Assembly: GCA_964637235.1 (NCBI GenBank)
Contig: CAZWVR010000004.1
Span: 1 to 49,112 of the forward strand
Direction of reading: 5' to 3'
DNA from: an uncultured Bacteroidales bacterium
Lineage (GTDB): Bacteria; Bacteroidota; Bacteroidia; Bacteroidales; S143-33
DNA: 49,112 nt
A model generated the notes under the pieces. That model was not told the DNA's origin, did no database searches, and saw nothing but the letters and a program-made list of their open reading frames with translations. Shown here piece after piece: positions 15,226 through 34,513 of the stretch (position 1 is its first letter; each line of letters opens with the position of its first letter). A program made the translations under genes and the position numbers.

Positions 15226-15622
15226 GGGGCTGACGTGGATTTGACAGCAGATAGGGTTGTCTACCTGCATGCCGGGGTAGGTAAGCGTCCCGTAAAAATC
15301 GCTTACAGAACAAATAAGTGCCAACGAAGGTACATATGCTCTCGCTGCCTAATTAGGCTATAACCGACCACCGGAATGGTGGCGGAGCGAGCATCCCGGC
15401 AAGTGAGGTTCGCCTGTACCGAGCTTGCCAATGGGGTGTCATAGAAAAAACAGGCTGGTGCAGATGTGCCGCGTCATCTGCACGAGATTTCAAATCGCGG
15501 CTGTGGAGACGGCTATGGGTGCGCTTCCGACCCGGTCGCCTCCGAGAACAAACAGGAAGCTAAGCATGTAGACGGTAGGCAGCCCGTCTGTTTGGACCGG
15601 GGTTCGACTCCCCGCAGCTCCA
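15226..15622 (+). ncRNA. ssrA: transfer-messenger RNA (tmRNA)
   Basis: 5' GGGGCTGACG pairs with 3' CAGCTCC plus discriminator A. There is a tRNA-like T-arm (GGGGTTCGACTCCCC) and the conserved GCTAAGCATGTAGA block. The tag reading frame is 15320-15352: GCC AAC GAA GGT ACA TAT GCT CTC GCT GCC TAA = ANEGTYALAA*. Confidence 0.93.
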
Positions 15623-15636
15623 CTAAAAACCTGAGT

Positions 15637-18153
15637 ATGAAGCGTTTTTTATTTTTTGCGATTGTTCTATTTTTTTTGTCTCATTTAACTTTTGCACAAG
15701 TAGCTATAAATACCACAGGAGATTCTCCTGACCCCTCTGCAATGTTGGATATTAGTGCTTCTGACAAAGGACTATTGATACCTCGTGTGGCTCTCACTGG
15801 AACAACAGATAATACAACTATCCCCTCACCAGCCACTGGCTTAATGATATATAACACTGCAACTACAAGCGACGTAGTAGAAGGTTTCTACTATTACGAC
15901 GGCACTAAATGGCAAAGACTGGGAAACAGAGCATATCATTTTGAAAATGGTCTGACTGATAATGGCTCGGGAACAGTGCGCTTCGGAGGTTATCTTTCTC
16001 AAAATACAACTCTGGACTTCGGCTTTAATACTCTTTATTTTAATCTGGACAATACCGGTGATTTTATAATTCAGTCTGATGGAACAGATAAAATTGTTTT
16101 TAATGACAATGGAAATGTGGAATTTAAGGGCAATATTGTTGTTAATGAATATGTTAATTTAGGCACTATATTAGGTTCTACGGGCTATGGATTTAGAACA
16201 AGAGCAGGCAATTTGGAATACAAAAGAAACGATACCTCACAATGGTCTCCCTTCCCTGATGCTGTTCCTTCCGGTGCAACACCTATTTGGTGGTATAAAC
16301 CGCAGGATTCAACTTTTATTCGACCTTTGAATAATGATAATATTCGTATTTATGACGACAACGAAAAATACGGATTTTATTATGATGGTTCTACAAATCA
16401 GTATGGTGGATTTTTCAGAACCCAGTCAGCTGCCGATACAACTTCTGCGGTTGTTGGTTTTTCAGATATTGCAGGCTTGCAAACTTATGGATATTTAGGA
16501 TATAGCGGTAATTATACAAATGTTGCTGGTGATTTATCTCTTGATGGTTCAGCTGTCTATGGTAAAGTAGATGATAAAAAACGTGCCGCAATTTTTGGAC
16601 GAACAACTCGCGACGCTACCATAGCCGCAATTGTTGGTTATTCCGACGTGTGGATAGCTGGTTATTTTTATAGCCGTGATAATGACGAGCGTTCGGCTTC
16701 TCACCCTGCATTATACGGACAAACCCTTGTGGATGTGGATAAATCAGGATATCAAGCTGCTGTGGAAGGTTGGTCTGAATATATTGCAGGAACAGGAAAT
16801 AGAGGCTATACCGTAGGCGGTGATTTCTCCGCTGTCGGACATGAACAGGATGCTATTGGATTGAATATCTACGCTCAATCATATGGATCAAATACTTTGG
16901 CTTATGGTGCTTATTTTAAAGTTGATTCTGCCGAAACAGCTTATGGAATTAAAGTTTTAGCAGGAACACAAGGATTGAGCTCTAATGTTTATGGTGTTTA
17001 CTCCAAAGCCCGTACTGATAAAGGCATTGGAATTATTGGAGTAGGTAGTAATGCCTCTGATTTTTTTAGTTCAGGTGCAGGCGACGGTGTTATTGGCTTC
17101 TCTGATTCAGGTTTCGGAGTTTTGGGATATTACGACGACGACCCTAACGATATGAATAATTATGGAGTGTTGGGATATGATACTTATGTGGCAAACTATT
17201 TTTACCACAACGAAACTCAGACAGATGATGGACAGGCTACAATTTCTGTTGAAAGAGAAACTGCCTCAGGTAATGACGGCACTGATTATAAGATGACTAC
17301 AAGTAATAAGGCTATTGAAGCTATAAATTATTCGGCTGATAATTATTCTTTTGCAATTGCTGGATATGGTTATAATAATGGATATAGAACAGGTGGAGTC
17401 TGGGGAGGTTTATTTGATGGTTCTTATAATATTACTGAGTGGGGAGCTTTGGGATATGCCGCTTCTAATGGTTATGATTATGGAGTTTATTATACAACTC
17501 TTGGGTCTGGTAGTGGTAAAGGAAATAAAAAATCAATAGGTTTAGGTGGATATTCTGACAATATAGGCGGTTGGATATATGGCAAAAATTATGGACTGGT
17601 GCTAAAAAGTGAAAAAAATTCCTTGCTTGTATTGGGAAATGCTTATACAACAGGAATAAATGCTAAAATAACAAAGGATAAAAATAATAATCAGATTGTT
17701 AGTTATTATCCTACTTCTGACTTGCCACGTATAATTTTCTCCGGACAAGCAAAACTCTCGCAAGGTAAAGCTTCTATTACGTTTAAACCTGAATATCAAC
17801 AACTTATATCACCTGATTATCCTATAATTATAACTTTGACACCTATCGGAAAATCAAATGGTTTATACCTTGAAAGCGTCTCTGAAAAAGGCTTTAAAGT
17901 GGCAGAAAATAATAATGGTAAATCTAACATAACTTTTAACTGGATAGCAATTGCAATTACCAAAGATGTAAATACACCTATTGATCAAAATATTTTGTCT
18001 AATGAAATAGAAAATATCATTACAAATGAAGCTGTTCAAAAAAATAATACTGAAAATACTGTAATACAAAGAAAATCAATAAAAAAAGAGCAATTAAAGT
18101 TTAAAAATGATAAACAAATATTGCAGAAAAAAAGAAAAAACGTCTCAAAATAA
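15637..18153 (+). CDS. secreted Gly/Tyr-rich repeat protein of unknown function
   Basis: The in-frame ATG at 15637 gives a signal peptide (MKRFLFFAIVLFFLSHLTFAQ). The N-terminal module is VAINTTGDSPDPSAMLDISASDKGLLIPRVALT...GLMIYNT...YYYDGTKWQRL. The centre has many ..GYSD/GYLGY/GYYD.. units. The tail is Lys-rich, and I saw no recognisable T9SS CTD. Confidence 0.6.
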   Translation: MKRFLFFAIVLFFLSHLTFAQVAINTTGDSPDPSAMLDISASDKGLLIPRVALTGTTDNTTIPSPATGLMIYNTATTSDVVEGFYYYDGTKWQRLGNRAYHFENGLTDNGSGTVRFGGYLSQNTTLDFGFNTLYFNLDNTGDFIIQSDGTDKIVFNDNGNVEFKGNIVVNEYVNLGTILGSTGYGFRTRAGNLEYKRNDTSQWSPFPDAVPSGATPIWWYKPQDSTFIRPLNNDNIRIYDDNEKYGFYYDGSTNQYGGFFRTQSAADTTSAVVGFSDIAGLQTYGYLGYSGNYTNVAGDLSLDGSAVYGKVDDKKRAAIFGRTTRDATIAAIVGYSDVWIAGYFYSRDNDERSASHPALYGQTLVDVDKSGYQAAVEGWSEYIAGTGNRGYTVGGDFSAVGHEQDAIGLNIYAQSYGSNTLAYGAYFKVDSAETAYGIKVLAGTQGLSSNVYGVYSKARTDKGIGIIGVGSNASDFFSSGAGDGVIGFSDSGFGVLGYYDDDPNDMNNYGVLGYDTYVANYFYHNETQTDDGQATISVERETASGNDGTDYKMTTSNKAIEAINYSADNYSFAIAGYGYNNGYRTGGVWGGLFDGSYNITEWGALGYAASNGYDYGVYYTTLGSGSGKGNKKSIGLGGYSDNIGGWIYGKNYGLVLKSEKNSLLVLGNAYTTGINAKITKDKNNNQIVSYYPTSDLPRIIFSGQAKLSQGKASITFKPEYQQLISPDYPIIITLTPIGKSNGLYLESVSEKGFKVAENNNGKSNITFNWIAIAITKDVNTPIDQNILSNEIENIITNEAVQKNNTENTVIQRKSIKKEQLKFKNDKQILQKKRKNVSK

Positions 18154-18159
18154 AAATAT

Positions 18160-21100
18160 ATGCTTATGAAACGGAATTTCTCTTACTTTTGGATGCTGAT
18201 TTTTTTAATTTTTTCATTTGCCGCAATGAAAAGTGAGGCACAGAATGATAATTGGGCATCATTAATGCAAGACCCGACGGCAAATGTCTATAAGGCTAAA
18301 CAAGCCTTTGATAATTATTACAAACATTTTGATCCTACAAAGGAAGTAGAAGAGGACTTTGGGAAAAAAGCCGATGAATTTGAAGCAGATTTTGAGCCTT
18401 ATTCAATTTTTAACCGTTGGTTTAATTTTATGGCTCCTCGTGTTTATCCAACAGGTGAAAGATTTCCCTCTGCAAAACTCTATTACGAATATCAACGTTA
18501 TTTAAAATCAAATCCACAAACGAAAGCCTCTGCTAACTGGACATTTTTAGGTCCTACTCACCCAACAGGATATACTCATAACGGTAATTATAAATCTCCC
18601 GGTGGTAGTGGGCGTGTAAATGCTATCACAGTTGACCCGACAAATTCAAATATTATTTGGGTAGGAACACCTGCTGGTGGGCTCTGGAAATCTACTGACG
18701 GCGGGCAAAACTGGACACTCATTTCTGACCAGTTTACTGTTATGGGAGTCTCCGCTATTGTGATTGACCCCGATAACACAAATATAATGTATATAGGCAC
18801 AGGAGACCGCGACGCTGGCGATACCCATTCTGTTGGTGTTTGGAAATCTACTGACGGCGGACAAACTTGGCAACCTACATCTGTTAGTTTTAGCGAACAT
18901 CAGAACGCCCGTTGTACCAAAATTTTGATGAATCCGCAGAACCATAACATAATGCTTGCATCTTTTAATGGTGTTGTTTACAGAACTACTGACGGATTTG
19001 CTACTAAAACCGCTGTTTTGCAAGATCTTATTTGGGACATGGAGTTTAATCCTTCTAATCCCAATATTGTTTATGCCGCAGGAACAAAATTTTATAAATC
19101 TACCGACGGAGGTCAAACTTGGACTCAAATAACTTCCGGTATCCCTTCCTCTCATGTTCAAAGAATGGAAATAGCTGTCTCTCCTGCTGAACCTAATAGT
19201 GTATGGCTATTAGTTGGTAGAGATAGAACTTACAGATTTGATTTTTACGGTTTGTATAAATCTACTAATGCTGGAAGCAGCTTTTCAACTGTATATGATT
19301 ACCATGATGGCAATCTTTTAGGATGGGACCCCGATGCAGCACCTGCTTCCTCTGGAAATAAAGGTGGACAGTCTTTCTATGATTTATCCTTGGCAGTTAA
19401 TCCTTCAAATCCTAATATAATTTTTGTTGGCGGTGTAAATCTTTATCGTTCTACAAATGGTGGTAGTTCATGGACTTGCTCTGCTTATTGGTTGGAAGGT
19501 GCTGGATATAGCTATGCTCACGCTGACTATCACGCATTGACTTATGTAAATTCTACAACCCTATACGCAGGTAATGACGGCGGTATCTTTGTTTCAACAG
19601 ACAATGGAGACTCTTGGACAGATATTTGTAATAATTTAGGAATAGCACAAGTGGCTCGTATTGGTGTTTCTGCTACTAATCCTAATTTGATATTAGCTGG
19701 TATGCAAGATAACGGAACAAATAAATTTGACGGCTCTACTTGGAGAATTATATATGGTGGCGATGGTTGCGAAGCTATTGTAGATCCCACAGATGACAAC
19801 ACTCTTTATGCTTCATACGTCTATGGTGCTTTATATCGTTCTACTGATGGCGGTAATTCTTGGACTTCTATAAAAGCAACATCCTCAGAACAGGGTGCTT
19901 GGATAACTCCTTATGTAATGGATCCTACTGACCATAATACCCTATATGCAGGTTATGAAAATGTTTATAAAACTACTAATGCCGGTTATTCTTGGACGCG
20001 TTTGGGATATGCTTATGGAAGTGGTCAAATAATAGAACTTGAAGTTGCTCCTTCTGATCCTAATTATATCTACTACATAAAACAGTATTGGGACGGCAGT
20101 TCGCTACATTATTATGTAGGTATGACAAACGATGGCGGAAATTCTTGGCATAATATCGGTGAAGGTTTACCTATTGACCAAGCTGCTCCTACTTCAATAG
20201 CAATCTCTGCTGATAACCCCCAGAAAGTTTGGATAACATTTTCTGGATATGTTGATGGTGTAAAAGTATATAAAACCGAGGACGCTGGTCAGACTTGGAC
20301 TAACTACTCTGATGGATTGCCGAATTTCCCTATGAATGCTATCGTATATCAGAAAGGCTCTAATGATGCCCTTTATGTTGGAGGTGATATTGGCGTTTAT
20401 TATCGTGATAATTCTATGAGCTCTTGGGCTAATTACAGTAATGGTTTGCCGCATACAGTTGTTAAAGAACTGGAAATTTATTATGACGAGGCAAATCCTC
20501 AAAATAGCCGTTTGCGTGCTGCAATGTATGGACGTAGTGTCTGGGAAACTCCTTTGGCTACTACTTCTACAATTTGTTATACTCCTACAAATCTTAGTGC
20601 AGAGCAAATAACTTCTTCTACGGCTAAACTCTCTTGGAACCCGGTATCTGGCGCTCAAAGTTATGACGTTAGATATAAAGCTGTTTCTGCTTCTGATTGG
20701 ACTGTCCAAAATACTACCAATGCTTATTTAAACGTAGGTGGTCTTTCTTTGAACGATACAGAGTACGAATTTCAGGTGAGAACAAATTGCCCTGATGGTA
20801 ATTCCTCTGCTTATTCCGATTCTTATCATTTTGGTTATGTGCCACCAACTTATTGCTCTTCCAGTGGTAATAACTCCTCTGACGAATGGATAAATGCTTT
20901 CAGTTTGCAAGATATTAACAATACTTCCGGAAATAACAACGGATATGGCGATTTTACTAATCTTTCAACTGATTTAGGACGAGGAAGTTCTTATAATTTC
21001 ACAATAGATCCTGCTTGGAGAGATAATATTTATTCCGAAGGATATGCTATTTGGATAGACTTTAATAAAGACGGTGATTTTGACGATCCTGGCGAGCAAG

Positions 21101-24100
21101 TATTTTCTCAATCTCCTACACAAAATGACCCTATAACCGGAACCATTACAATACCTTCTGATGCTCCATTGGGACAAACTCGCTTGCGTGTAGTTTTGAA
21201 ATACAATGCCGTTCCTGACCCATGCGGTTCTTATGAGTACGGCGAAACAGAGGATTATACTGTAAACATTATTGATGCTGTTGATAATCAGCCTCCTACT
21301 GCTCCTACAAATTTGACTGCTTCTAATGTTTCTAATAATAGTGTTGATTTATCTTGGAATGCTTCTTCTGACAACGTAGGCGTTGTAGGCTATTATGTAT
21401 ATAAAAATGGGCAACGTATCACAAACACAACAAATACCTCTATAACAGTATCAGGACTTCAAGCAAATACAACATATGACTTCTACGTTACTGCTTACGA
21501 TGCCCAAAATAACGAGTCTGATGGTAGTAATGTTGTAGAAGTAACAACTCAACCAGATCCAGATAGTATCCCTCCATCTGCACCAACTAATTTGGCTTAT
21601 TCAAATGTCACTCAGTTGAGTGTTGATCTTTCTTGGGAGGCTTCTTCTGATAATGTGGGAGTAGAAGGATACAGAATTTATAAAGACGACGCTTATATCG
21701 CTTCAACCTCTAATACAAGCTACACTGTAAACGGTTTGTCAGCTGGAACTACATATCAATTTTATGTTAAAGCTTATGATGCAGCTGGAAATCTTTCTGA
21801 CCCAAGTAATACCGTGACAGTTACAACTCAGCAACCTGATGTCAGCTACTGCGAATCAAAAGGTAAAAATTCATCAGAGGAATGGATAGATAGAGTTGTT
21901 GTAGGAGATTTAGATCATTCATCAGGTAATAATGGTGGTTATGCAGATTTTACAAATTATGTCGCTAAAATTTATACAAATAATCCAACAGATATAACAA
22001 TATATCCTGCTTGGTCTGGAACAGTATATTCCGAAGGTTATGCTGTATGGATAGACTTTAATCACGATGGTGATTTTGATGATCCTGGCGAACAGGTGTT
22101 CTCTCATGATCCTACACAGGATAGTCCTATAACTGGTTCATTTACAGTGCCTAATTCTGTTCAGACAGGACAAACAAGAATGAGAATTTCTTTGAAATAT
22201 AATGGAATACCAACACCTTGCGAAACCTTTGATTGGGGAGAAGTTGAAGATTATACCGTTGATATCCAAAATGGCGGAGATTTAACACCTCCTTCTGCTC
22301 CTTCAAATCTTTCAGCTTCAAATATTACTTCAACAAGTGTTAAACTCTCATGGATCGCTTCTACTGATAATGTAGGCGTAGATGGATATAAAATTTATAA
22401 AGATGGCTCATTATTGACTAATACTACTGGAACTTCATATACTGTTAATGGTTTGTCTCCTTCTACAACTTATCAATTCTATGTAGTAGCTTATGATGCC
22501 GCAGGTAATACTTCTGATCCAAGTAATACAATTTCTGTAACAACACTTGAAGAAGAGGATACCCAAGCTCCTACTGCTCCTACAAATTTGACTTATTCAA
22601 ATGTTACAGCAACATCTGTAAATCTTGCTTGGGACGCTTCCTCTGATAATAAAGGCGTTCAAGATTATTTGATATTTAAAGACGGAAGTCTTGAAGGAAC
22701 AACAGCAAATACTTATTACACAGTTTCAGGACTTTCCCCCAATACTACTTATCAGTTCTATGTAAAAGCCAGAGATGCTGCTGGTAATGTTTCTGACCCA
22801 AGTAATACAGTGAATGTAACCACTTCAACGTCAGTTAGTTATTGTTCTTCATCTGGTGAAAATGCTTCCGAGGAATGGATCGATAGAGTTGTATGTGGCT
22901 CTATTGATAATCAGTCTGGGTCAAATGGCGGTTATGCAGACTTTACAAATCTTTCTACCTCAATGCCGCAAGGAACAAATCAAACTATTACGGTTTATCC
23001 TGCTTGGTCTGGTTCTGTTTATAACGAAGCTGTTGCTGTATGGATAGACTGGAACCAAGATGGAGACTTTAACGATAATGGAGAACTTGTATTTACCAGT
23101 GAACCTTCTACAACTTCTCCTGTTAGCGGAACATTTACTGTTCCAGCAAGTGCTTTGACAGGAACAACTCGTATGCGTGTATCTATGAAATATAACGATA
23201 TACCAGATCCTTGCGAAACGTTCCAGTACGGAGAAGTTGAGGATTATACAGTTAGTGTTTCCGCTACTAATGATACACAAGCTCCTACTGCTCCAAGCAA
23301 TTTGCATGCAGATAATATAACACAAACAACCGTTGACCTCTATTGGGATGCTTCCAGTGATGATGTGGGAGTCGCTAAATATAACATATATAAAAACGGT
23401 AGTTTATTGGGATATGTACAATCAACATCTGCACATATTACTGGACTCTCCGCAGGAACAACTTATGAGTTTTACGTTACTGCTTTGGATGCCGCAGGTA
23501 ATGAATCCTCTGCAAGTAATACTATAAATGTGACTACCGAAGCTGCTTCTACTCAGTATTGTAGTTCAAAAGGTAATAATGCAACAGAGGAATGGATAAA
23601 GCGTGTTGTTTTAGGTTCTATTGATAACACTTCTGGACAAGATGGCGGTTATGGAGATTATACAAATTTGAGCACTTCTCTTACGCGTGGTAATACATAT
23701 ACCTTATATGTCGTTCCTGAATGGGCAGGCACTGTATATAAAGAAGCTTATGCCGCTTGGATAGATTATAATCAAGATGGTGATTTTGATGATATAAATG
23801 AGCAAATATTCTCCCATTCAGCAACTACTGACTCTTATGTATATGGCTCATTTACAGTGCCTACGAGTGCAGCTTTGGGTAGCACAAGAATGCGTGTATC
23901 TATGGAATATAATGCAATACCCGCTGCGTGCGGCAATTTCTCTTATGGTGAAGTTGAAGACTATACAGTAATTATTTCATCATCAAAAGATGCAGTTAGT
24001 TCAGTAGCTACAAATAAAAACATTAACATTTATCCTAATCCAGCTACTCAGACAGTTAATTTTGTTATGGATAATACAGGAGATTACGTAGTCTATCTAT

Positions 24101-24246
24101 ATAACTCTACTGGTCAGATAGTTAAGAGTTTAAGAGTTTCTTCTGATATAATTCGTTTGAATGTTTCGGAACTTGCTTCTGGGATATATAATGTCAGAAT
24201 TGTTGGAAATAATGCGGTTTATACTGGCACATTTATAAAACAATGA
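18160..24246 (+). CDS. 2028-aa T9SS cargo protein: BNR/Asp-box (sortilin/VPS10-like) propeller, FN3 domains, GEVED domains and a C-terminal T9SS sorting domain
   Basis: Signal peptide. About 10 Asp-box motifs (KSTDGGQNW, KSTDGGQTW, RSTNGGSSW, VSTDNGDSW, and others) between nt ~18580 and 20560. Six FN3-like units. Four units end in GE(V/T)EDYTV. The C-terminus (NIYPNPATQTVNFV...GIYNVRIV...TGTFIKQ) is typical of a type A T9SS CTD. Confidence 0.85.
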   Translation: MLMKRNFSYFWMLIFLIFSFAAMKSEAQNDNWASLMQDPTANVYKAKQAFDNYYKHFDPTKEVEEDFGKKADEFEADFEPYSIFNRWFNFMAPRVYPTGERFPSAKLYYEYQRYLKSNPQTKASANWTFLGPTHPTGYTHNGNYKSPGGSGRVNAITVDPTNSNIIWVGTPAGGLWKSTDGGQNWTLISDQFTVMGVSAIVIDPDNTNIMYIGTGDRDAGDTHSVGVWKSTDGGQTWQPTSVSFSEHQNARCTKILMNPQNHNIMLASFNGVVYRTTDGFATKTAVLQDLIWDMEFNPSNPNIVYAAGTKFYKSTDGGQTWTQITSGIPSSHVQRMEIAVSPAEPNSVWLLVGRDRTYRFDFYGLYKSTNAGSSFSTVYDYHDGNLLGWDPDAAPASSGNKGGQSFYDLSLAVNPSNPNIIFVGGVNLYRSTNGGSSWTCSAYWLEGAGYSYAHADYHALTYVNSTTLYAGNDGGIFVSTDNGDSWTDICNNLGIAQVARIGVSATNPNLILAGMQDNGTNKFDGSTWRIIYGGDGCEAIVDPTDDNTLYASYVYGALYRSTDGGNSWTSIKATSSEQGAWITPYVMDPTDHNTLYAGYENVYKTTNAGYSWTRLGYAYGSGQIIELEVAPSDPNYIYYIKQYWDGSSLHYYVGMTNDGGNSWHNIGEGLPIDQAAPTSIAISADNPQKVWITFSGYVDGVKVYKTEDAGQTWTNYSDGLPNFPMNAIVYQKGSNDALYVGGDIGVYYRDNSMSSWANYSNGLPHTVVKELEIYYDEANPQNSRLRAAMYGRSVWETPLATTSTICYTPTNLSAEQITSSTAKLSWNPVSGAQSYDVRYKAVSASDWTVQNTTNAYLNVGGLSLNDTEYEFQVRTNCPDGNSSAYSDSYHFGYVPPTYCSSSGNNSSDEWINAFSLQDINNTSGNNNGYGDFTNLSTDLGRGSSYNFTIDPAWRDNIYSEGYAIWIDFNKDGDFDDPGEQVFSQSPTQNDPITGTITIPSDAPLGQTRLRVVLKYNAVPDPCGSYEYGETEDYTVNIIDAVDNQPPTAPTNLTASNVSNNSVDLSWNASSDNVGVVGYYVYKNGQRITNTTNTSITVSGLQANTTYDFYVTAYDAQNNESDGSNVVEVTTQPDPDSIPPSAPTNLAYSNVTQLSVDLSWEASSDNVGVEGYRIYKDDAYIASTSNTSYTVNGLSAGTTYQFYVKAYDAAGNLSDPSNTVTVTTQQPDVSYCESKGKNSSEEWIDRVVVGDLDHSSGNNGGYADFTNYVAKIYTNNPTDITIYPAWSGTVYSEGYAVWIDFNHDGDFDDPGEQVFSHDPTQDSPITGSFTVPNSVQTGQTRMRISLKYNGIPTPCETFDWGEVEDYTVDIQNGGDLTPPSAPSNLSASNITSTSVKLSWIASTDNVGVDGYKIYKDGSLLTNTTGTSYTVNGLSPSTTYQFYVVAYDAAGNTSDPSNTISVTTLEEEDTQAPTAPTNLTYSNVTATSVNLAWDASSDNKGVQDYLIFKDGSLEGTTANTYYTVSGLSPNTTYQFYVKARDAAGNVSDPSNTVNVTTSTSVSYCSSSGENASEEWIDRVVCGSIDNQSGSNGGYADFTNLSTSMPQGTNQTITVYPAWSGSVYNEAVAVWIDWNQDGDFNDNGELVFTSEPSTTSPVSGTFTVPASALTGTTRMRVSMKYNDIPDPCETFQYGEVEDYTVSVSATNDTQAPTAPSNLHADNITQTTVDLYWDASSDDVGVAKYNIYKNGSLLGYVQSTSAHITGLSAGTTYEFYVTALDAAGNESSASNTINVTTEAASTQYCSSKGNNATEEWIKRVVLGSIDNTSGQDGGYGDYTNLSTSLTRGNTYTLYVVPEWAGTVYKEAYAAWIDYNQDGDFDDINEQIFSHSATTDSYVYGSFTVPTSAALGSTRMRVSMEYNAIPAACGNFSYGEVEDYTVIISSSKDAVSSVATNKNINIYPNPATQTVNFVMDNTGDYVVYLYNSTGQIVKSLRVSSDIIRLNVSELASGIYNVRIVGNNAVYTGTFIKQ
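20851..23975 (+). repeat. intragenic modular repeats: GEVED1, FN3 x2, GEVED2, FN3 x2, GEVED3, FN3, GEVED4
   Basis: GEVED units: ~20851-21270, 21841-22269, 22837-23260, 23554-23975. FN3 units: ~21292-21552, 21571-21830, 22288-22548, 22567-22824, 23281-23540. Some nucleotide strings recur exactly, for example cctactgctcctacaaatttgact at ~21295 and ~22570. Confidence 0.8.
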
Positions 24247-24996: not shown

Positions 24997-25559
24997 TGAA
25001 ATATTTAATAGTCGGCTTGGGAAATATCGGTAAAGAGTACGAGAATACTCGTCATAATATTGGGTTTAAAATATTGGACGCCCTTGCAGAGGCGTCCGAT
25101 GTTTTTTTTACGCAGGGTCGTCTTGCCTATTTTGCCACTTTAAAACTTAAAGGTCGTGAGTTGACTTTAATAAAACCTACTACTTATATGAATTTAAGCG
25201 GTAGAGCTGTTAATTATTGGCTCAAACAGAAAAAGATACCTTTTGAAAGATTGTTAATAGTAGTTGACGATGTTAACCTTCCGCTTGGGAAAATCCGAAT
25301 ACGTGCTCGTGGTAGTGATGGCGGTCATAATGGAATTAAAGATATTTGTTCGTGGTTAGGAACTTGTAATTTCCCTCGTTTACGTTTTGGTATTGATAAA
25401 AATTACGCCCCAGGAGAACAAGCTGATTATGTTCTGGGTCAATGGACTGATGAGGAATGGAAAATTGTACAAGAGCGCATTCCGATAGCAGTTGAAGCTA
25501 TTAAAAGTTTTGTATTAAATGGTATAGCTCGTACTATGAGCGAATATAATTCCAAATGA
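24996..25559 (+). CDS. pth: peptidyl-tRNA hydrolase
   Basis: 187-aa ORF with LIVGLGNIGKEYENTRHNIGF, YMNLSGRAV, GSDGGHNGIKDI and RLRFGI motifs. Its ATG overlaps the rplY stop. Confidence 0.93.
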   Translation: MKYLIVGLGNIGKEYENTRHNIGFKILDALAEASDVFFTQGRLAYFATLKLKGRELTLIKPTTYMNLSGRAVNYWLKQKKIPFERLLIVVDDVNLPLGKIRIRARGSDGGHNGIKDICSWLGTCNFPRLRFGIDKNYAPGEQADYVLGQWTDEEWKIVQERIPIAVEAIKSFVLNGIARTMSEYNSK

Positions 25560-25948
25560 AAGAGAAATTACGAATAGATAAATTTTTATGGGCGGTTCGG
25601 ATATTTAAGACGCGTTCGCAAGCTGCTGAGGCTTGTAGAAAGGGTCATATTTATGTAAATGATGTTCCAGTCAAGCCTTCCAAAGAGATAAAAGTTTCCG
25701 ATATTATAAAGGTGAAACATAAAGTAATATATAGGCAGTATCGTATTTTAGAGCTCACAGATAAGCGTCTGGGTGCAAAGTTGGTTGGTAATTATATAGA
25801 GGAGATAACACCTGAGGAGGATTTACTTAAACTTAAAATGTATTATGAAGCGCTTAGAATTAGTAAGCCTACATTTAAAGGACGACCAACAAAAAAAGCG
25901 AGACGTGATATTGAAAGATTTCTCCGAGGGGGTGAGCGAGATTATTGA
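25556..25948 (+). CDS. hslR: S4-domain RNA-binding protein (Hsp15-like)
   Basis: 130-aa ORF. The S4 motif RIDKFLWAVRIFKTRSQAAEACRKGHIYVNDVPVKPS is followed by a basic C-terminus. It overlaps pth by 4 nt. Confidence 0.75.
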   Translation: MKEKLRIDKFLWAVRIFKTRSQAAEACRKGHIYVNDVPVKPSKEIKVSDIIKVKHKVIYRQYRILELTDKRLGAKLVGNYIEEITPEEDLLKLKMYYEALRISKPTFKGRPTKKARRDIERFLRGGERDY

Positions 25949-25975: not shown

Positions 25976-26226
25976 GCGTTAGGGCGGAGGCGGGTTAGAC
26001 GGTGCGCAGCGAGCGTATGGAGGCGTTTGCGGGCGGAGGCTGAGCGATGGAGCGAAGCCCCACGCACCGCAAAGCGAGGCGAGGCTTAGGTGGGCGTGCT
26101 GTCAGACTAAGGCTGCTGCCGCCCACCTTGCCGAGCCGAGTAATTACGCCTCCTCAGCGAGCAAGCACCGGATACAAGCCGTAGCCCGACCTGTTGCCGC
26201 TGAAAAGCGAGCAACAGGGAACGCCC
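25976..26226. repeat. GC-rich ~250-nt noncoding element, copy A (reverse-complement orientation relative to copy B)
   Basis: This is a sharp island of G+C in AT-rich DNA. It begins GCGTTAGGGCGGAGG and ends GGGAACGCCC. The core at 26026-26081 is near-identical to the reverse complement of 33198-33252. Internal hairpins lie at 26190-26218 (8 bp + 4 bp with a GAAA loop) and 26088-26128. Confidence 0.85.
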
Positions 26227-26247: not shown

Positions 26248-27303
26248 ATGGAAAAATTAAGTCATCAGGTATTTTTCTCAGAGAATATTAAGGAGGATTT
26301 GCGTTTGTGGCGGAATAAATATTTAGGTAAAAAAGTTTTTGTAATAACCGATTACAATACACAAAAGTATTGTTTGCCAAAGCTTAGCGAGGCATTGGAG
26401 CCTTTTTATCACTATTCTATATCTGCTGGTGAAGTTTATAAAAATATCAACACGGCGATTGATTTGTGGCGTTTTTTATCTAAAAACCTCGCAGACCGTG
26501 AGAGTATAGTTGTGAATTTAGGTGGTGGTGTGGTTTCAGACTTAGGAGGTTTTGTTGCTTCTACTTTTAAACGTGGTGTAAAATTTATAAATGTTCCGAC
26601 TACTCTTTTGGCACAGGTTGATGCTGCTATTGGGGGGAAAACAGGAATAAATTTGGATTATCTGAAAAATGAGGTAGGAACTTTTGCTAAGCCTGAGGCG
26701 GTATTTATTGCGCCGGAGTTTTTGGAGACTCTCCCAGAACGTGATTTTATAGCCGGCTATGCGGAAATTGTTAAATATGCTTTAATAAGTAGCCCGGAAA
26801 TGTGGGAGGAGGTAAAGCGTTCAATGACTATTGAAATGAATATGAAAAATTTAAGTCAGATTATAAGGAAATCAGTGGAGATTAAATTGAAAATAGTTGA
26901 AAAAGACCCTTATGAGCGGGATTTGCGTAAAATTCTTAATTTCGGGCATACTTTTGGACATGCTTTTGAGACGTTTTTTAAACTTAAAGGTATTGATATA
27001 TTGCATGGTGAAGCAGTAGCTATGGGTATTATTTGTGAAATATATTTATCAAATCAGCGTTTTGTGTTTGATTTTCAGAGGGTTTTTGAAATTAGTGAAG
27101 TAATATCAAAGTTTTTCCCGACCTATCGTATTCAATATAAAGATTATGATGAAATATATGAAATCATGCTTCATGATAAAAAGAATTCTTCTGGTGAAAT
27201 TCATTTTACATTGTTGAAGGATATAGGTGATGTGGCTATAAATCAAGTAGTTGAAAAATCTGATATTTATGAGGCTCTAAATTTTTATTCTCAAATACGA
27301 TAA
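26248..27303 (+). CDS. aroB: 3-dehydroquinate synthase
   Basis: The motifs NLGGGVVSDLGGFVASTFKRGVKFINVPTTLLAQVDAAIGGKTGIN and FGHTFGHAFE are diagnostic. The start is set at the ATG at 26248 (MEKLSHQ), because the ORF-track start at 26194 lies inside the GC-rich element. Confidence 0.9.
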   Translation: MEKLSHQVFFSENIKEDLRLWRNKYLGKKVFVITDYNTQKYCLPKLSEALEPFYHYSISAGEVYKNINTAIDLWRFLSKNLADRESIVVNLGGGVVSDLGGFVASTFKRGVKFINVPTTLLAQVDAAIGGKTGINLDYLKNEVGTFAKPEAVFIAPEFLETLPERDFIAGYAEIVKYALISSPEMWEEVKRSMTIEMNMKNLSQIIRKSVEIKLKIVEKDPYERDLRKILNFGHTFGHAFETFFKLKGIDILHGEAVAMGIICEIYLSNQRFVFDFQRVFEISEVISKFFPTYRIQYKDYDEIYEIMLHDKKNSSGEIHFTLLKDIGDVAINQVVEKSDIYEALNFYSQIR

Positions 27304-31658: not shown

Positions 31659-33041
31659 ATGAAAAAACTTAGTTTTTTCCTGATAAGCTTGGCTTTTTTC
31701 TATTGTCTTGTCTCTGATGTATATGCTCAGGGAGATTCTAATGCTCTGCAAATAACAGGCTATTTAATGTCTGACCAGAGAATACTTACTGATAATGCTA
31801 AATGGTTCTGGAATGAAAATCGCCTGAATATAGCAATGGACAAAAAATTATCCGGAGCATTGGATTTTCATACTCAATTGTGGATTAGAAATATTGGCTT
31901 TCCTTCTGTTCATAATTTGAATATGCTATCTAATAAGCATAATATCAATTATTTAGATTTGGAACTTAGGGAGTTTTATGTTAAAGTATATAATTTTTTA
32001 GTGCCAAATTTGGATATGACCATAGGTCGTCAGATAATAGAATGGGGCACTGCTGATAAAATTAATCCAACAAGTAATGTTTCTCCCTATGATTATGAAG
32101 ATATTTTGGATTTTGGGCGTAAGCGGGGTAATGAAGCTCTGAATTTAGTTTATACTTTTGGGAAAAATAAAGATTTTTATTTACAAGGAATATGGGAGCC
32201 ATTTTTCCGCCCTGATAATTTGCCTATATATCCTTATTCACAGCTATTGAGTTTTTCTCCTAAAAGTTTACCTGCAATGTCTCTATTAGCTTATTCAGAT
32301 TCGTTAATTATGCCTTCGTATTCTCTTAAAAATTCTATTGCTGCATTTAAATTAAAAGGATTTGCTTTTGGCACAGATTGGTCATTGAGCTATATTTATA
32401 CATTTGACGGTTTGCCTATGCCTTATCAGGCTGATTACTATATGATAAGTCCGAATACTTTGAATTTGAATTTAAAAATGACTTATTATCGTGAACATAT
32501 TATTGGAGCGGATTTTTCAACAAATATATTTGGTGCCGGATTCTGGGGAGAAGCTGCCGCTTTTATCCCAAAAAAGGATGTGTCTTTTTCAGCATTTTTG
32601 CATACACCAAATCCAATTATGCCATTACAAAAACTTGCAGATAGTATTATTTTGCAAAAAAATAAACCTTTTTTTAAATACGTAGTAGGTTTTGATTATA
32701 ACTTTCCTTATGATTTTTATATTCATCTGCAATATGTTCACGGTTTTACTTTCGAGAGAGGAGCAGATAATCTAAATGATTATTTTTTCTTTAATCTTGA
32801 TAAATCTTTATTTTATGGCAAATTGAAGCTTAGTCCTGCTACTGTGGCATTTATCGTAAATGATTGGAATGATATCGCTAATAATTATGTTTTTGCTTAT
32901 TTTCCGAGCTTGGTTTATAAGCCTGTGGAGGATTTAGAACTGAATTTATCTGGTGCTTATATAACTGCTAAGGGAGATCAAATATTTGCTAAATTGAAAG
33001 ATTGGAATATGGTGCAGTTTCGTGTTAAATATTATTTTTAA
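31659..33041 (+). CDS. putative outer-membrane beta-barrel (DUF1302-like)
   Basis: 460-aa ORF with a signal peptide. It has a GRQIIEWGTADKINPT motif like DUF1302-type barrels, alternating aromatic/polar strands and a C-terminal aromatic residue (..VKYYF). Confidence 0.5.
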   Translation: MKKLSFFLISLAFFYCLVSDVYAQGDSNALQITGYLMSDQRILTDNAKWFWNENRLNIAMDKKLSGALDFHTQLWIRNIGFPSVHNLNMLSNKHNINYLDLELREFYVKVYNFLVPNLDMTIGRQIIEWGTADKINPTSNVSPYDYEDILDFGRKRGNEALNLVYTFGKNKDFYLQGIWEPFFRPDNLPIYPYSQLLSFSPKSLPAMSLLAYSDSLIMPSYSLKNSIAAFKLKGFAFGTDWSLSYIYTFDGLPMPYQADYYMISPNTLNLNLKMTYYREHIIGADFSTNIFGAGFWGEAAAFIPKKDVSFSAFLHTPNPIMPLQKLADSIILQKNKPFFKYVVGFDYNFPYDFYIHLQYVHGFTFERGADNLNDYFFFNLDKSLFYGKLKLSPATVAFIVNDWNDIANNYVFAYFPSLVYKPVEDLELNLSGAYITAKGDQIFAKLKDWNMVQFRVKYYF

Positions 33042-33046
33042 TTTTT

Positions 33047-33302
33047 GGGCGTTCCCGCCGCTGACGCAAAACCCTCGCTACGGCGGTCGGGTGCTCCGCT
33101 TATATTCGGCTGTGGCTCGCAGGTGGCACTAATTCGCTCGGCTCATTAAGGCGGAACGGCAGCAGGCTGACGCCTGTCAGCACGTCCGCCTAAAATTCGC
33201 CTCGCTTTGCGGTGCGTGGGGCTTCGCTCTACGCTCAGCCTCCGCCCGCAAAGTGCCACAATTCTGCTCGCCTTCGCCTCATATCGCTTCGCCCCCTAAC
33301 GC
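33047..33302. repeat. GC-rich ~250-nt noncoding element, copy B
   Basis: It begins GGGCGTTCCC and ends CCCCCTAACGC, which are the reverse complements of the ends of copy A. The core at 33198-33252 matches copy A. Hairpins lie at 33055-33086, 33149-33191 and 33166-33181 (GCTGAC-GCCT-GTCAGC). It fills the gap between convergent genes. Confidence 0.85.
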
Positions 33303-33312
33303 AGAACATACA

Positions 33313-34389
33313 TTAAAATTTATACACTATTGCATTAATGTTCATACCTGCCCCTATTGAGGTAAATACTGCGTAATCACCTTCTTTGAGTGTATGACCT
33401 TCCATTTTACCACGAAGTATTAAATCTAACATTGTTGGTATTGTAGCCACTGAGGAATTTCCAAGCCATCCTATGGTCATTGGCATTATTTCCGGTGGAA
33501 ATGTCTTATATCCATATAATCTAAATAGTCTTTTTACTATTGCACTGTCCATCTTTTCATTTGCCTGATGAATTAGTATTTTTTTTATTTTTTCTAATGG
33601 AACACCGGCTTTATCAATAGCTTTTTTTACAACATCTGGAACATTCTTTAATGCATATTCATATACTTTATGACCGTGCATCTTGGTGAAAAAATTATGC
33701 TCCCCTTTATAATCAGGATTTAATGAATGATTATTGTATATATAAAATGCTTCATTATAGGCATCATTGCGTGTTTGATGGGAGACTATTCCTATCGGTT
33801 CTTCACTTTCTACAGCTTCTAAAATTGTTGCACCCGAACCATCTGCAAATATCATTGAATCTCTATCGTGTGGATCCATAAAATAGGATAAAACTTCTGC
33901 TCCTATGATAAGTGCTCGTTTTACCTCGCCGGATTTTATATAGTAATTAGCTATTGTCATTGCTAATATCCAACCCGGGCAGCCAAAAACTACGTCATAA
34001 GGTATACAGTATGGATTTTTTATGCCTAAATAATGTTTTACTCTTGCTGCAAGGGCTGGAACCATATCTGAATGTCTATTTTGATCTGCATCTCCGTAAT
34101 TGTGAGCTAAAATAATTAAATCTATACTCTCCGGATCAATACCTGCATTTTCTATAGCTTTACGTGCTGCTTCTGTGGATATATCTGAATTTTTTTTACC
34201 TTCTTCCACATAGCGCCGTTCTTTTATTCCTGTTATCTCGTAAAATTTTTGTATCGTCTCCTCAGGAGATTTTTCTATCCGTTTACCGTATGTTTCAAAA
34301 AAATCATTGTTTATAAAATCTTCGTTTTTTATTACTCGCGGGGCTATATAACTACCAGTTCCGATAATTTTTGAATAGATTTGTGCCAT
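33313..34389 (-). CDS. beta-ketoacyl-ACP synthase III family protein (FabH-like)
   Basis: The catalytic triad context is present: FGCPGW (Cys), IHQANEKM (His), GNSSVATIP (Asn). The start is set at the ATG at 34389 (MAQIYSKIIGTGSY) rather than 34440. Confidence 0.8.
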   Translation of the reverse strand: MAQIYSKIIGTGSYIAPRVIKNEDFINNDFFETYGKRIEKSPEETIQKFYEITGIKERRYVEEGKKNSDISTEAARKAIENAGIDPESIDLIILAHNYGDADQNRHSDMVPALAARVKHYLGIKNPYCIPYDVVFGCPGWILAMTIANYYIKSGEVKRALIIGAEVLSYFMDPHDRDSMIFADGSGATILEAVESEEPIGIVSHQTRNDAYNEAFYIYNNHSLNPDYKGEHNFFTKMHGHKVYEYALKNVPDVVKKAIDKAGVPLEKIKKILIHQANEKMDSAIVKRLFRLYGYKTFPPEIMPMTIGWLGNSSVATIPTMLDLILRGKMEGHTLKEGDYAVFTSIGAGMNINAIVYKF

Positions 34390-34513
34390 AACAGAAGTTT
34401 TTGATTGCCAAAGGTATAAAAAAAAATATTTTCTAAACATTTTTCTGATTACTGATCTCTCTTTTTTTATGATTTTATCAAAATTTTTTTGGAAATAACA
34501 GGCTTTTTATTTT

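Follow-up and report, generated by a model that had tools for sequence, protein, structure and literature searches.

The window, that is, the whole 49,112-nt stretch of DNA that was analysed (contig CAZWVR010000004.1, assembly GCA_964637235.1, from an uncultured Bacteroidales bacterium), has a GC content of 33% and contains two sharp GC islands (63-65% GC), which we term copies A and B. Copy A sits between an S4-domain gene and aroB, and copy B fills the spacer between two convergent genes. The tmRNA gene (positions 15226-15625, plus strand; 169 bits; tag peptide ANEGTYALAA; 56% GC) is the sole other non-coding GC island in the window. A mechanically called open reading frame at 15466-18153 overlaps the 3' part of this tmRNA gene, so that the true start of the gene in that frame must lie further downstream. 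Between the tmRNA gene and copy A, positions 18160-24246 (plus strand) encode a predicted secreted protein of 2028 aa with Sortilin/BNR, fibronectin type III and four GEVED domains and a type IX secretion sorting tail; its DNA carries long diverged internal repeats (approximately 20997-23994) at spacings of about 279, 717 and 996 nt. The two elements and the genes that flank them are:

25556-25948, plus strand: S4-domain (Hsp15-like) gene, directed into copy A, which begins 27 nt past the stop codon
25976-26226, plus strand as sense: copy A, whole element; 251 nt, 65% GC, subfamily I, 245 bits with model R1
26248-27303, plus strand: aroB (3-dehydroquinate synthase), start codon 21 nt past copy A, leaving no room for a promoter
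31659-33041, plus strand: open reading frame of 460 aa with no Pfam match, in convergent orientation to the FabH-like gene; 5 nt separate its stop codon from copy B, at the end away from that gene
33047-33302, minus strand as sense: copy B, whole element; 256 nt, 63% GC, subfamily II, 203 bits with model R1
33313-34440, minus strand: FabH-like ketoacyl-ACP synthase III gene, which reads into copy B and whose stop codon stands 10 nt from the sense 5' end of the element

Extent and architecture of the two copies

The first-pass annotation had proposed that copy B matches the reverse complement of copy A from end to end, and this is borne out: the two can be aligned over their full length with a mean column identity of 81%. 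On the plus strand copy B starts with GGGCGTTCCC and ends with CCCTAACGC, and the reverse complement of copy A starts with GGGCGTTCCCTGTTGC and likewise ends with CCCTAACGC. Within the shared 55-nt core, the copies differ by one substitution and one indel, both in the hairpin loop alone (CTCTA-CGC versus CTCCATCGC). The 24-mer GCTTTGCGGTGCGTGGGGCTTCGC of the core occurs exactly twice in the window, where no occurrence is expected. The helix segments that had been read in copy B are also in place, namely CCGCCG (33055-33060) and CGGCGG (33081-33086), and AGGCGGAACG (33149-33158) and CGTCCGCCT (33183-33191).

Both copies, on either strand, fold far better than their dinucleotide shuffles (z from -4.9 to -7.5), and none of 200 shuffles equalled them. 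The fold of copy B reaches -128.7 kcal/mol (z = -5.4) and that of copy A -137.6 to -141.3 kcal/mol (z = -7.5). An ENA assembly of the same locus as copy B (L001:14561-14817) differs from the window copy at four positions in or beside the core (TTCGCC>TTTGCC, GCTTTG>GCTCTG, an extra G in GGGGCTT, and AAAGTG>AAAGCG), and two of these changes make G.U pairs on the proposed sense strand. The differences could represent strain variation or a mis-assembled repeat.

The component helices, all read on the sense strand of their copy, are:

26026-26073, plus strand: core hairpin P5 of copy A
26074-26141, plus strand: hairpin P4 of copy A (AGGTGGGCG/CGCCCACCT)
26190-26218, plus strand: hairpin P2 of copy A (CCTGTTGC/GCAACAGG)
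33049-33053, minus strand: terminal helix P1 of copy B, arm GCGTT, pairing with AACGC at 33298-33302 and so closing the element end to end
33055-33086, minus strand: hairpin P2 of copy B (CCGCCG/CGGCGG), the last hairpin on the sense strand
33106-33129, minus strand: first arm of the hypervariable stem P3 of copy B, partner 33253-33279
33136-33205, minus strand: hairpin P4 of copy B, conserved at its apex (GGCAGCAG..CTGTCAGC) and covarying in its lower stem; contains the AGGCGGAACG/CGTCCGCCT helix
33206-33252, minus strand: core hairpin P5 of copy B, stem identical in all copies and apical loop alone variable; GCGAAGC and one conserved A.C (sense) mismatch
33253-33279, minus strand: second arm of the hypervariable stem P3 of copy B, partner 33106-33129
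33298-33302, minus strand: terminal helix P1 of copy B, other arm AACGC (helix 1, with covariation)

On the sense strand the 5-bp P1 is followed by a basal stem, P3 and a three-way junction bearing P5 (invariant stem) and P4 (conserved apex, covarying base), and P2 stands apart near the 3' end. Units have four to five helices and measure 241-256 nt; the two copies with loop inserts are longer, at 306 and 385 nt. The element ends, GCGTN...N'ACGCCC, are mutually paired, and the innermost pair of P1 is GC in six copies, UA in six and AU in two. The basal stem falls into two sequence subfamilies, type I (including A) and type II (including B); the tetranucleotide GTAG occurs at internal positions only and in subfamily I only. 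Tandem GA/GA 2x2 internal loops in a C-GA-G context number 55 in 12 copies (four to five per copy), two of them at the base of P4 in copy B. Across the copies no single-stranded stretch is conserved, and all terminal loops and the junction strand vary. A riboswitch or ribozyme was rejected on this lack of conserved single-stranded nucleotides and because the downstream genes are unrelated to each other.

P2 differs in sequence and length in every copy, with identity between copies mostly of 14-70%. Two copies carry AT-rich inserts in the P2 loop, of about 140 nt (L014:1003-1387) and about 70 nt (L016:496-801), and in both the P2 stem is still paired across the insert. These inserts bear no obvious likeness to each other, and the P2 loop may be a site for cargo or secondary insertion.

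Distribution of the family and its orientation relative to genes

The element belongs to a family of at least 16 copies: A and B in the window and 14 more in a single metagenome. The latter were retrieved by the exact core 24-mer and lie on 14 contigs of JGI metagenome Ga0256833 (= 3300028398), with different flanking genes each time. In helix 6 (P5), 15 of the 16 pairs never vary, an invariance that is partly ascertainment because the copies were retrieved by an exact 24-mer from P5. One of the metagenome loci, L005, is also present in ENA sample ERZ27262668, the source of the window locus too, and the copies therefore most likely come from the organism or population of the window. Three contigs (L002, L008 and L011) end within an element copy; the repeat therefore breaks short-read assemblies, and the true number of copies is probably higher. 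Between copies whose P2 shares just 14-26%, P4 is 99-100% identical, and such modules, common to copies in differing combinations, indicate recombination or gene conversion among the copies. The GC content of the element is 59-69%, against approximately 33% for the genome. Thermophily was rejected as a cause of the high GC, given that proteome composition predicts a mesophile growing at around 30 °C.

Searches of other collections yielded little. Over the whole window the tmRNA alone reached its gathering score in Rfam release 15, where copy B gave no match at E<=10 and copy A gave only meaningless matches to eukaryotic lncRNAs and snoRNAs (E 2-10). BLAST against plasmids and phages returned no match to the element, and the core 20-mer and 24-mer had no match in viral contigs. 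A degenerate P4 pattern matched viral contigs 18 times, and these matches were taken as chance, since they scored about 12-17 bits with R1 over a short stretch of the pattern only. In a genome collection with one genome per species, a 32-mer gave no match and a 20-mer gave the contig of L016 together with two matches in GC-rich genomes that R1 rejects. Model R1 run over approximately 190 kb of the closest Bacteroidales loci found no further copy. The contig of L016 (also L017; JALSPS010000032.1, 3.9 kb) is binned as Candidatus Kaiserbacteria. One of its proteins carries a type IX secretion sorting domain (Por_Secre_tail), which makes mis-binning of a Bacteroidota contig the most likely explanation. 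ParE homologues and a protein with this kind of domain also assign the organism to Bacteroidales.

The flanking genes are housekeeping genes, including thiolase and acyl-CoA dehydrogenase, pta and def, feoB, an Rnf subunit and glycosyltransferases. The upstream genes have no functional theme in common, and a specific regulatory role is therefore not indicated. In most cases the element takes up the spacer: the upstream stop codon lies 5-58 nt from it in 9 of 13 copies (5-27 nt in eight), and the downstream start codon 14-26 nt away in seven. At A and B we found no terminator and no promoter-like site, in a promoter scan that covered the sigma-70 consensus and not Bacteroidota-type promoters. 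As there is too little space for a promoter and no terminator was detected, the downstream gene would have to rely on read-through for its expression. A terminator or promoter role was rejected on the same grounds of missing sites and too little space. Nor does an intrinsic terminator (GC hairpin plus U-tract) fit, as the sense 3' flank is A-rich and the start codons stand 14-26 nt off.

Copy B had been read on the plus strand, and here the first-pass annotation needs correcting: gene context and the purine-rich GA/GA loops make the minus strand the likely functional one. The upstream gene reads into the element, and on this basis the sense strand is the plus strand for A and the minus strand for B. 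Of the full-length copies, 13 have a gene on the relevant side, and in every one of these the gene is on the sense strand and reads into the element; only the truncated copy L008 departs from this orientation (13/14 overall). Where the two neighbours are co-directional, as at 11 copies, the element is always in the sense orientation; two copies separate convergent genes, and divergent genes flank no complete copy. Folding is better on the sense strand in 14 of 14 copies, and 75% of the unpaired bases there are purines. The GA/GA loops of this strand would be UC/UC on the other strand. Outside three misaligned columns, G.U outnumbers A.C by 24 cells to 10, which weakly favours the sense strand; at two invariant positions the proposed sense strand has A.C and the opposite strand G.U. 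We infer that the element is transcribed and folds as RNA, and that RNA is the selected form.

The same data bear on a credible if unlikely alternative, in which the family is a DNA-level mobile element of the REPIN/PATE kind whose single-stranded DNA fold is recognised by a hairpin-binding transposase (IS200/IS605 TnpA, RAYT or similar). Covariation would then serve to keep DNA hairpins intact for transposition. This view draws support from the composition of the helices, where Watson-Crick pairs make up about 99% and G.U pairs are rare (8 among roughly 1000), a make-up uncommon in RNA and just as fitting for a DNA hairpin, and from folding with DNA parameters, under which both strands fold about equally well. 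It is opposed by the GA/GA loops, present on one strand only, and by the direction of the copies. A and B are opposite in orientation and 7 kb apart in a window whose GC skew is positive nearly throughout (the cumulative skew rises almost steadily, with a few 1-kb bins dipping slightly); the orientation therefore appears to follow the genes and not replication, as judged from a window with no origin in view.

Compensatory change in the helices

For the analysis of covariation, 12 full-length copies were aligned by sequence alone (MAFFT), and the consensus of their individual minimum-energy folds comprised 84 pairs. In this alignment 38 of the 84 pairs show changes on both sides. Paired cells amount to 86.7%, compared with 78.1% after shuffling and 31-40% with slid partners, and the covariation score is 0.229, compared with 0.096 (shuffled) and 0.04-0.065 (slid). 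None of 500 shuffles reached the observed score, so that covariation in the larger set of copies, a check proposed with the original observation, proved to be above chance. The model-fitted alignment, of 20 distinct rows, gave 46 of 84 pairs with both-side changes, 91.5% paired cells (79.1% shuffled, 29-39% slid) and a score of 0.240 (0.084 shuffled, 0.024-0.041 slid). RNAalifold, run on the unfitted alignment, independently found P1, P4, P5 and part of P3.

The changes are distributed unevenly over the fold. Both sides have changed in 12 of 12 pairs of helices 4 and 5 (P3) and in 12 of 25 pairs of helices 7 and 8 (P4). The P3 arms were also compared by a test that is free of any alignment: cognate arms pair at -34 to -35 kcal/mol and non-cognate arms at -18 to -19 kcal/mol (sd 5), and the cognate arm is the best partner in 11 of 12 copies, the exception having an arm in common with another copy. 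P2, at the GGGCGTT end, behaves differently from what had been described there as compensatory change. A helix is indeed present at this position in both A and B, but the two are wholly different hairpins of variable length and not the product of point compensations.

A folded single strand under selection, and not a decaying duplicate, is thus supported, as the first-pass annotation had argued from helices kept with changed sequence; 46 of 84 pairs changed on both sides and the fit of the cognate arms uphold the argument. That the likeness is due to chance, or that the copies are a decaying duplication with accidental hairpins, can practically be dismissed. GC-rich sequence folds easily, which is an a priori point and the only one for chance; against it stand the single architecture common to 16 copies, the 0/500 shuffles that reach the observed covariation, the advantage of cognate over non-cognate arms in 11/12 copies, and the 24-mer found exactly twice in the window with none expected.

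Another alternative is that the copies are stand-alone, trans-acting structured RNAs, excised from a read-through transcript or made from their own promoter and accumulating as a stable particle of 250 nt. The two ends are brought together by P1, a covarying helix, much as in processed stable RNAs, and an invariant core with covarying peripheral helices and a conserved internal-loop geometry would suit such molecules, as would the consistent orientation, which is unlike that of typical mobile repeat candidates (PMC11109978). The invariant P5 hairpin and the GA-loop rods would, on this account, bind protein. We regard both the account and this protein-binding role as improbable, seeing that the copies have no conserved single-stranded stretch, no apparent partner gene and no promoter-like site at A or B (in a scan for the sigma-70 consensus), and that the element was not found in approximately 190 kb of related Bacteroidales, a distribution more like that of a young selfish repeat than of a functional RNA gene.

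Insertion and likeness to known repeats

One copy lies in the spacer between the thiolase and acyl-CoA dehydrogenase genes, which measures 312 nt with the element. The same spacer was compared in four relatives whose dehydrogenase is 82-85% identical:

L051: spacer of 34 nt, without the element
L048: spacer of 79 nt, with a small hairpin followed by a T-tract
L050: spacer of 103 nt, without the element; imperfect small hairpin
L046: spacer of 224 nt, with an unrelated repeat that has CCCCCTTTGAAAAAGGGGG hairpins

The short, element-free spacers of the relatives indicate that the element is a lineage-specific insertion, and that the site often holds a simpler hairpin elsewhere. For locus A, the nearest AroB shares only 61% identity and stands in a different gene order. 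The flanks of 15 copies contain no consistent direct repeat that would mark a target-site duplication, with copy A alone having a possible TTAAA. A T-run stands beside the GGGCG end in about 13 of 15 copies, equivalent to an A-run after the sense 3' end. Conserved terminal inverted repeats are absent, there being just the 5-bp terminal helix with its covarying inner pairs, and no parent IS was found for the element; together with the lack of a target-site duplication, this sets the family apart from MITEs.

Insertion relative to related genomes, the lack of a target-site duplication, the one-sided flank bias and the modules in differing combinations among copies are all compatible with the DNA-level mobile element considered above. 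In likeness to the IS200/IS605-derived PATE and REPIN elements, the family has no target-site duplication, an asymmetric flank preference and a folded single strand. It departs from them in that its subterminal hairpin P2 is hypervariable in sequence and length (identity mostly 14-70%) and carries loop inserts, whereas a hairpin bound by a transposase should be conserved; the conserved hairpin is internal and not terminal; the orientation, as judged from GC skew, is not tied to replication; and no TnpA/TnpB gene was found. The RAYT or other Y1 hairpin-binding transposase that had been suggested as a partner did not materialise, as no such gene is present in the window or next to the 14 other copies, and a search of the 49-kb window and approximately 50 kb of contigs of this organism gave no RAYT gene. 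A YhgA-like gene (Pfam Transposase_31; L007:773-1705) reads into one copy from a distance of 186 nt. No other of the 14 metagenome copies has a transposase-like neighbour, and this one may be there by coincidence.

REP/BIME repeats lie mostly between unidirectional and convergent genes, near the 3' end of the upstream open reading frame, and REPs are thought to be transcribed and to act as RNA elements (PMC3733652). A REP consists of one palindrome, 20-40 nt long and headed by a conserved unpaired GTAG or CGTC, and REPs often occur as inverted pairs (PMC3733652). The present family is alike in consisting of GC-rich hairpin repeats with many copies per genome and mosaic combinations of units, and in its placement (11 unidirectional and two convergent sites; upstream stop codons at 5-58 nt in 9/13 copies). 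It differs in that the unit is a multi-branch structure of 250 nt and not a single 20-40 nt palindrome, has no conserved unpaired GTAG/CGTC head, has ends that pair with each other, and combines an invariant internal hairpin with hypervariable covarying rods, tandem GA loops and one fixed orientation.

ERIC/IRU of enterobacteria and bcr of the Bacillus cereus group are transcribed intergenic repeats of 100-160 nt that fold as RNA, and their effects on the stability of flanking mRNA can depend on orientation. Like these, the family consists of medium-sized dispersed repeats, which are predicted to lie within transcription units and to form RNA folds. In contrast to them, it is dissimilar in sequence (neither Rfam nor BLAST against plasmids and phages gave a match), is larger, is much GC-richer than its host, has no terminal inverted repeats or target-site duplication, and has copies that diverge by wholesale compensatory changes and not by a few substitutions.

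Screens of GC-rich intergenic regions routinely yield mobile/repeat sequence candidates (MRSCs), whose orientation is usually inconsistent and which often lie beside transposase, integrase or nuclease genes (PMC11109978). By its multiple copies (two in the window and 14 in one metagenome) the family falls into the operational class that such a screen would assign; it differs in its consistent orientation (13/14) and in having a transposase-like neighbour for one of 14 copies. Integron attC sites were also considered. The element ends resemble the R''/R' boxes RYYYAAC/GTTRRRY only loosely (GCCCTAAC), the element is flanked by housekeeping genes on both strands, and no integrase is present.

Our reading, which we hold with moderate confidence, is that the family consists of structured RNA repeats that are co-transcribed with neighbouring genes and specific to this lineage, with REP and ERIC repeats as their nearest counterparts. 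Each copy would be transcribed within the mRNA of the flanking operon, on the strand of the upstream gene, and the transcript would fold into a closed, branched structure whose two ends are joined by the 5-bp terminal helix. A long basal and variable rod would lead to the three-way junction with the invariant P5 and the semi-conserved P4, with the separate hypervariable hairpin P2 beside the 3' end. The rods, built of short G-C helices alternating with tandem GA/GA loops, should be very stable. As in REP and ERIC repeats, such a stable intercistronic or 3'-end structure may block exonucleases or mark a processing site, or it may merely be tolerated, and the family would spread as a non-autonomous selfish element.

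GC-rich intergenic repeats are thus a known kind, and the element family itself is undescribed. It is atypical in its size, its tandem-GA multi-branch fold, its compensatory divergence around an invariant hairpin and its fixed transcriptional orientation. If the co-transcribed RNA repeat is the right reading, the family would be an unusually clean natural case of a large multi-branch fold kept across many diverged copies: around 16 paralogous copies, probably in one population, with every helix kept, the helix sequences replaced and the orientation locked to transcription. It would supply covariation data, ready for use, on a new fold rich in tandem G.A loops, and a candidate stabiliser or processing signal within Bacteroidota operons. 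To our knowledge, post-transcriptional control in Bacteroidota is poorly understood. With this family one could also ask whether selection on small bacterial repeats acts on RNA or on DNA.

A bolder proposal, which we advance tentatively and think unlikely, is that the copies represent an undescribed class of self-contained RNA of approximately 250 nt, closed end to end, with tandem-GA rods around an invariant hairpin and released from operon transcripts, which works with a protein partner or propagates via an RNA intermediate. If true, propagation through RNA would explain both the near-uniform transcribed orientation and the A-rich stretch after the 3' end. Insertion by target-primed reverse transcription, which the A-run brought to mind, was set aside as speculative, there being no target-site duplication and no reverse transcriptase, and A-rich leaders being normal before the start codons of Bacteroidota.

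The spacers of the relatives carry hairpins of their own. Two relatives without the element have a small hairpin in the same intercistronic spacer: at L048:9922-10000, AGTAGAG and CTCTACT enclose a 12-nt loop and are followed by TTTATATTT, and the other hairpin lies at L050:9898-10000. These hairpins suggest a weak internal terminator or stabiliser at the position of the element. In L046:2237-2462 (GCA_027056055.1), and also in L047, the thiolase to acyl-CoA dehydrogenase spacer holds two repeat units, each with a TTCACCAAYGG motif and a CCCCCTTTGAAAAAGGGGG hairpin, and model R1 gives no match to them; unrelated hairpin repeats have therefore colonised one and the same operon spacer in different lineages.
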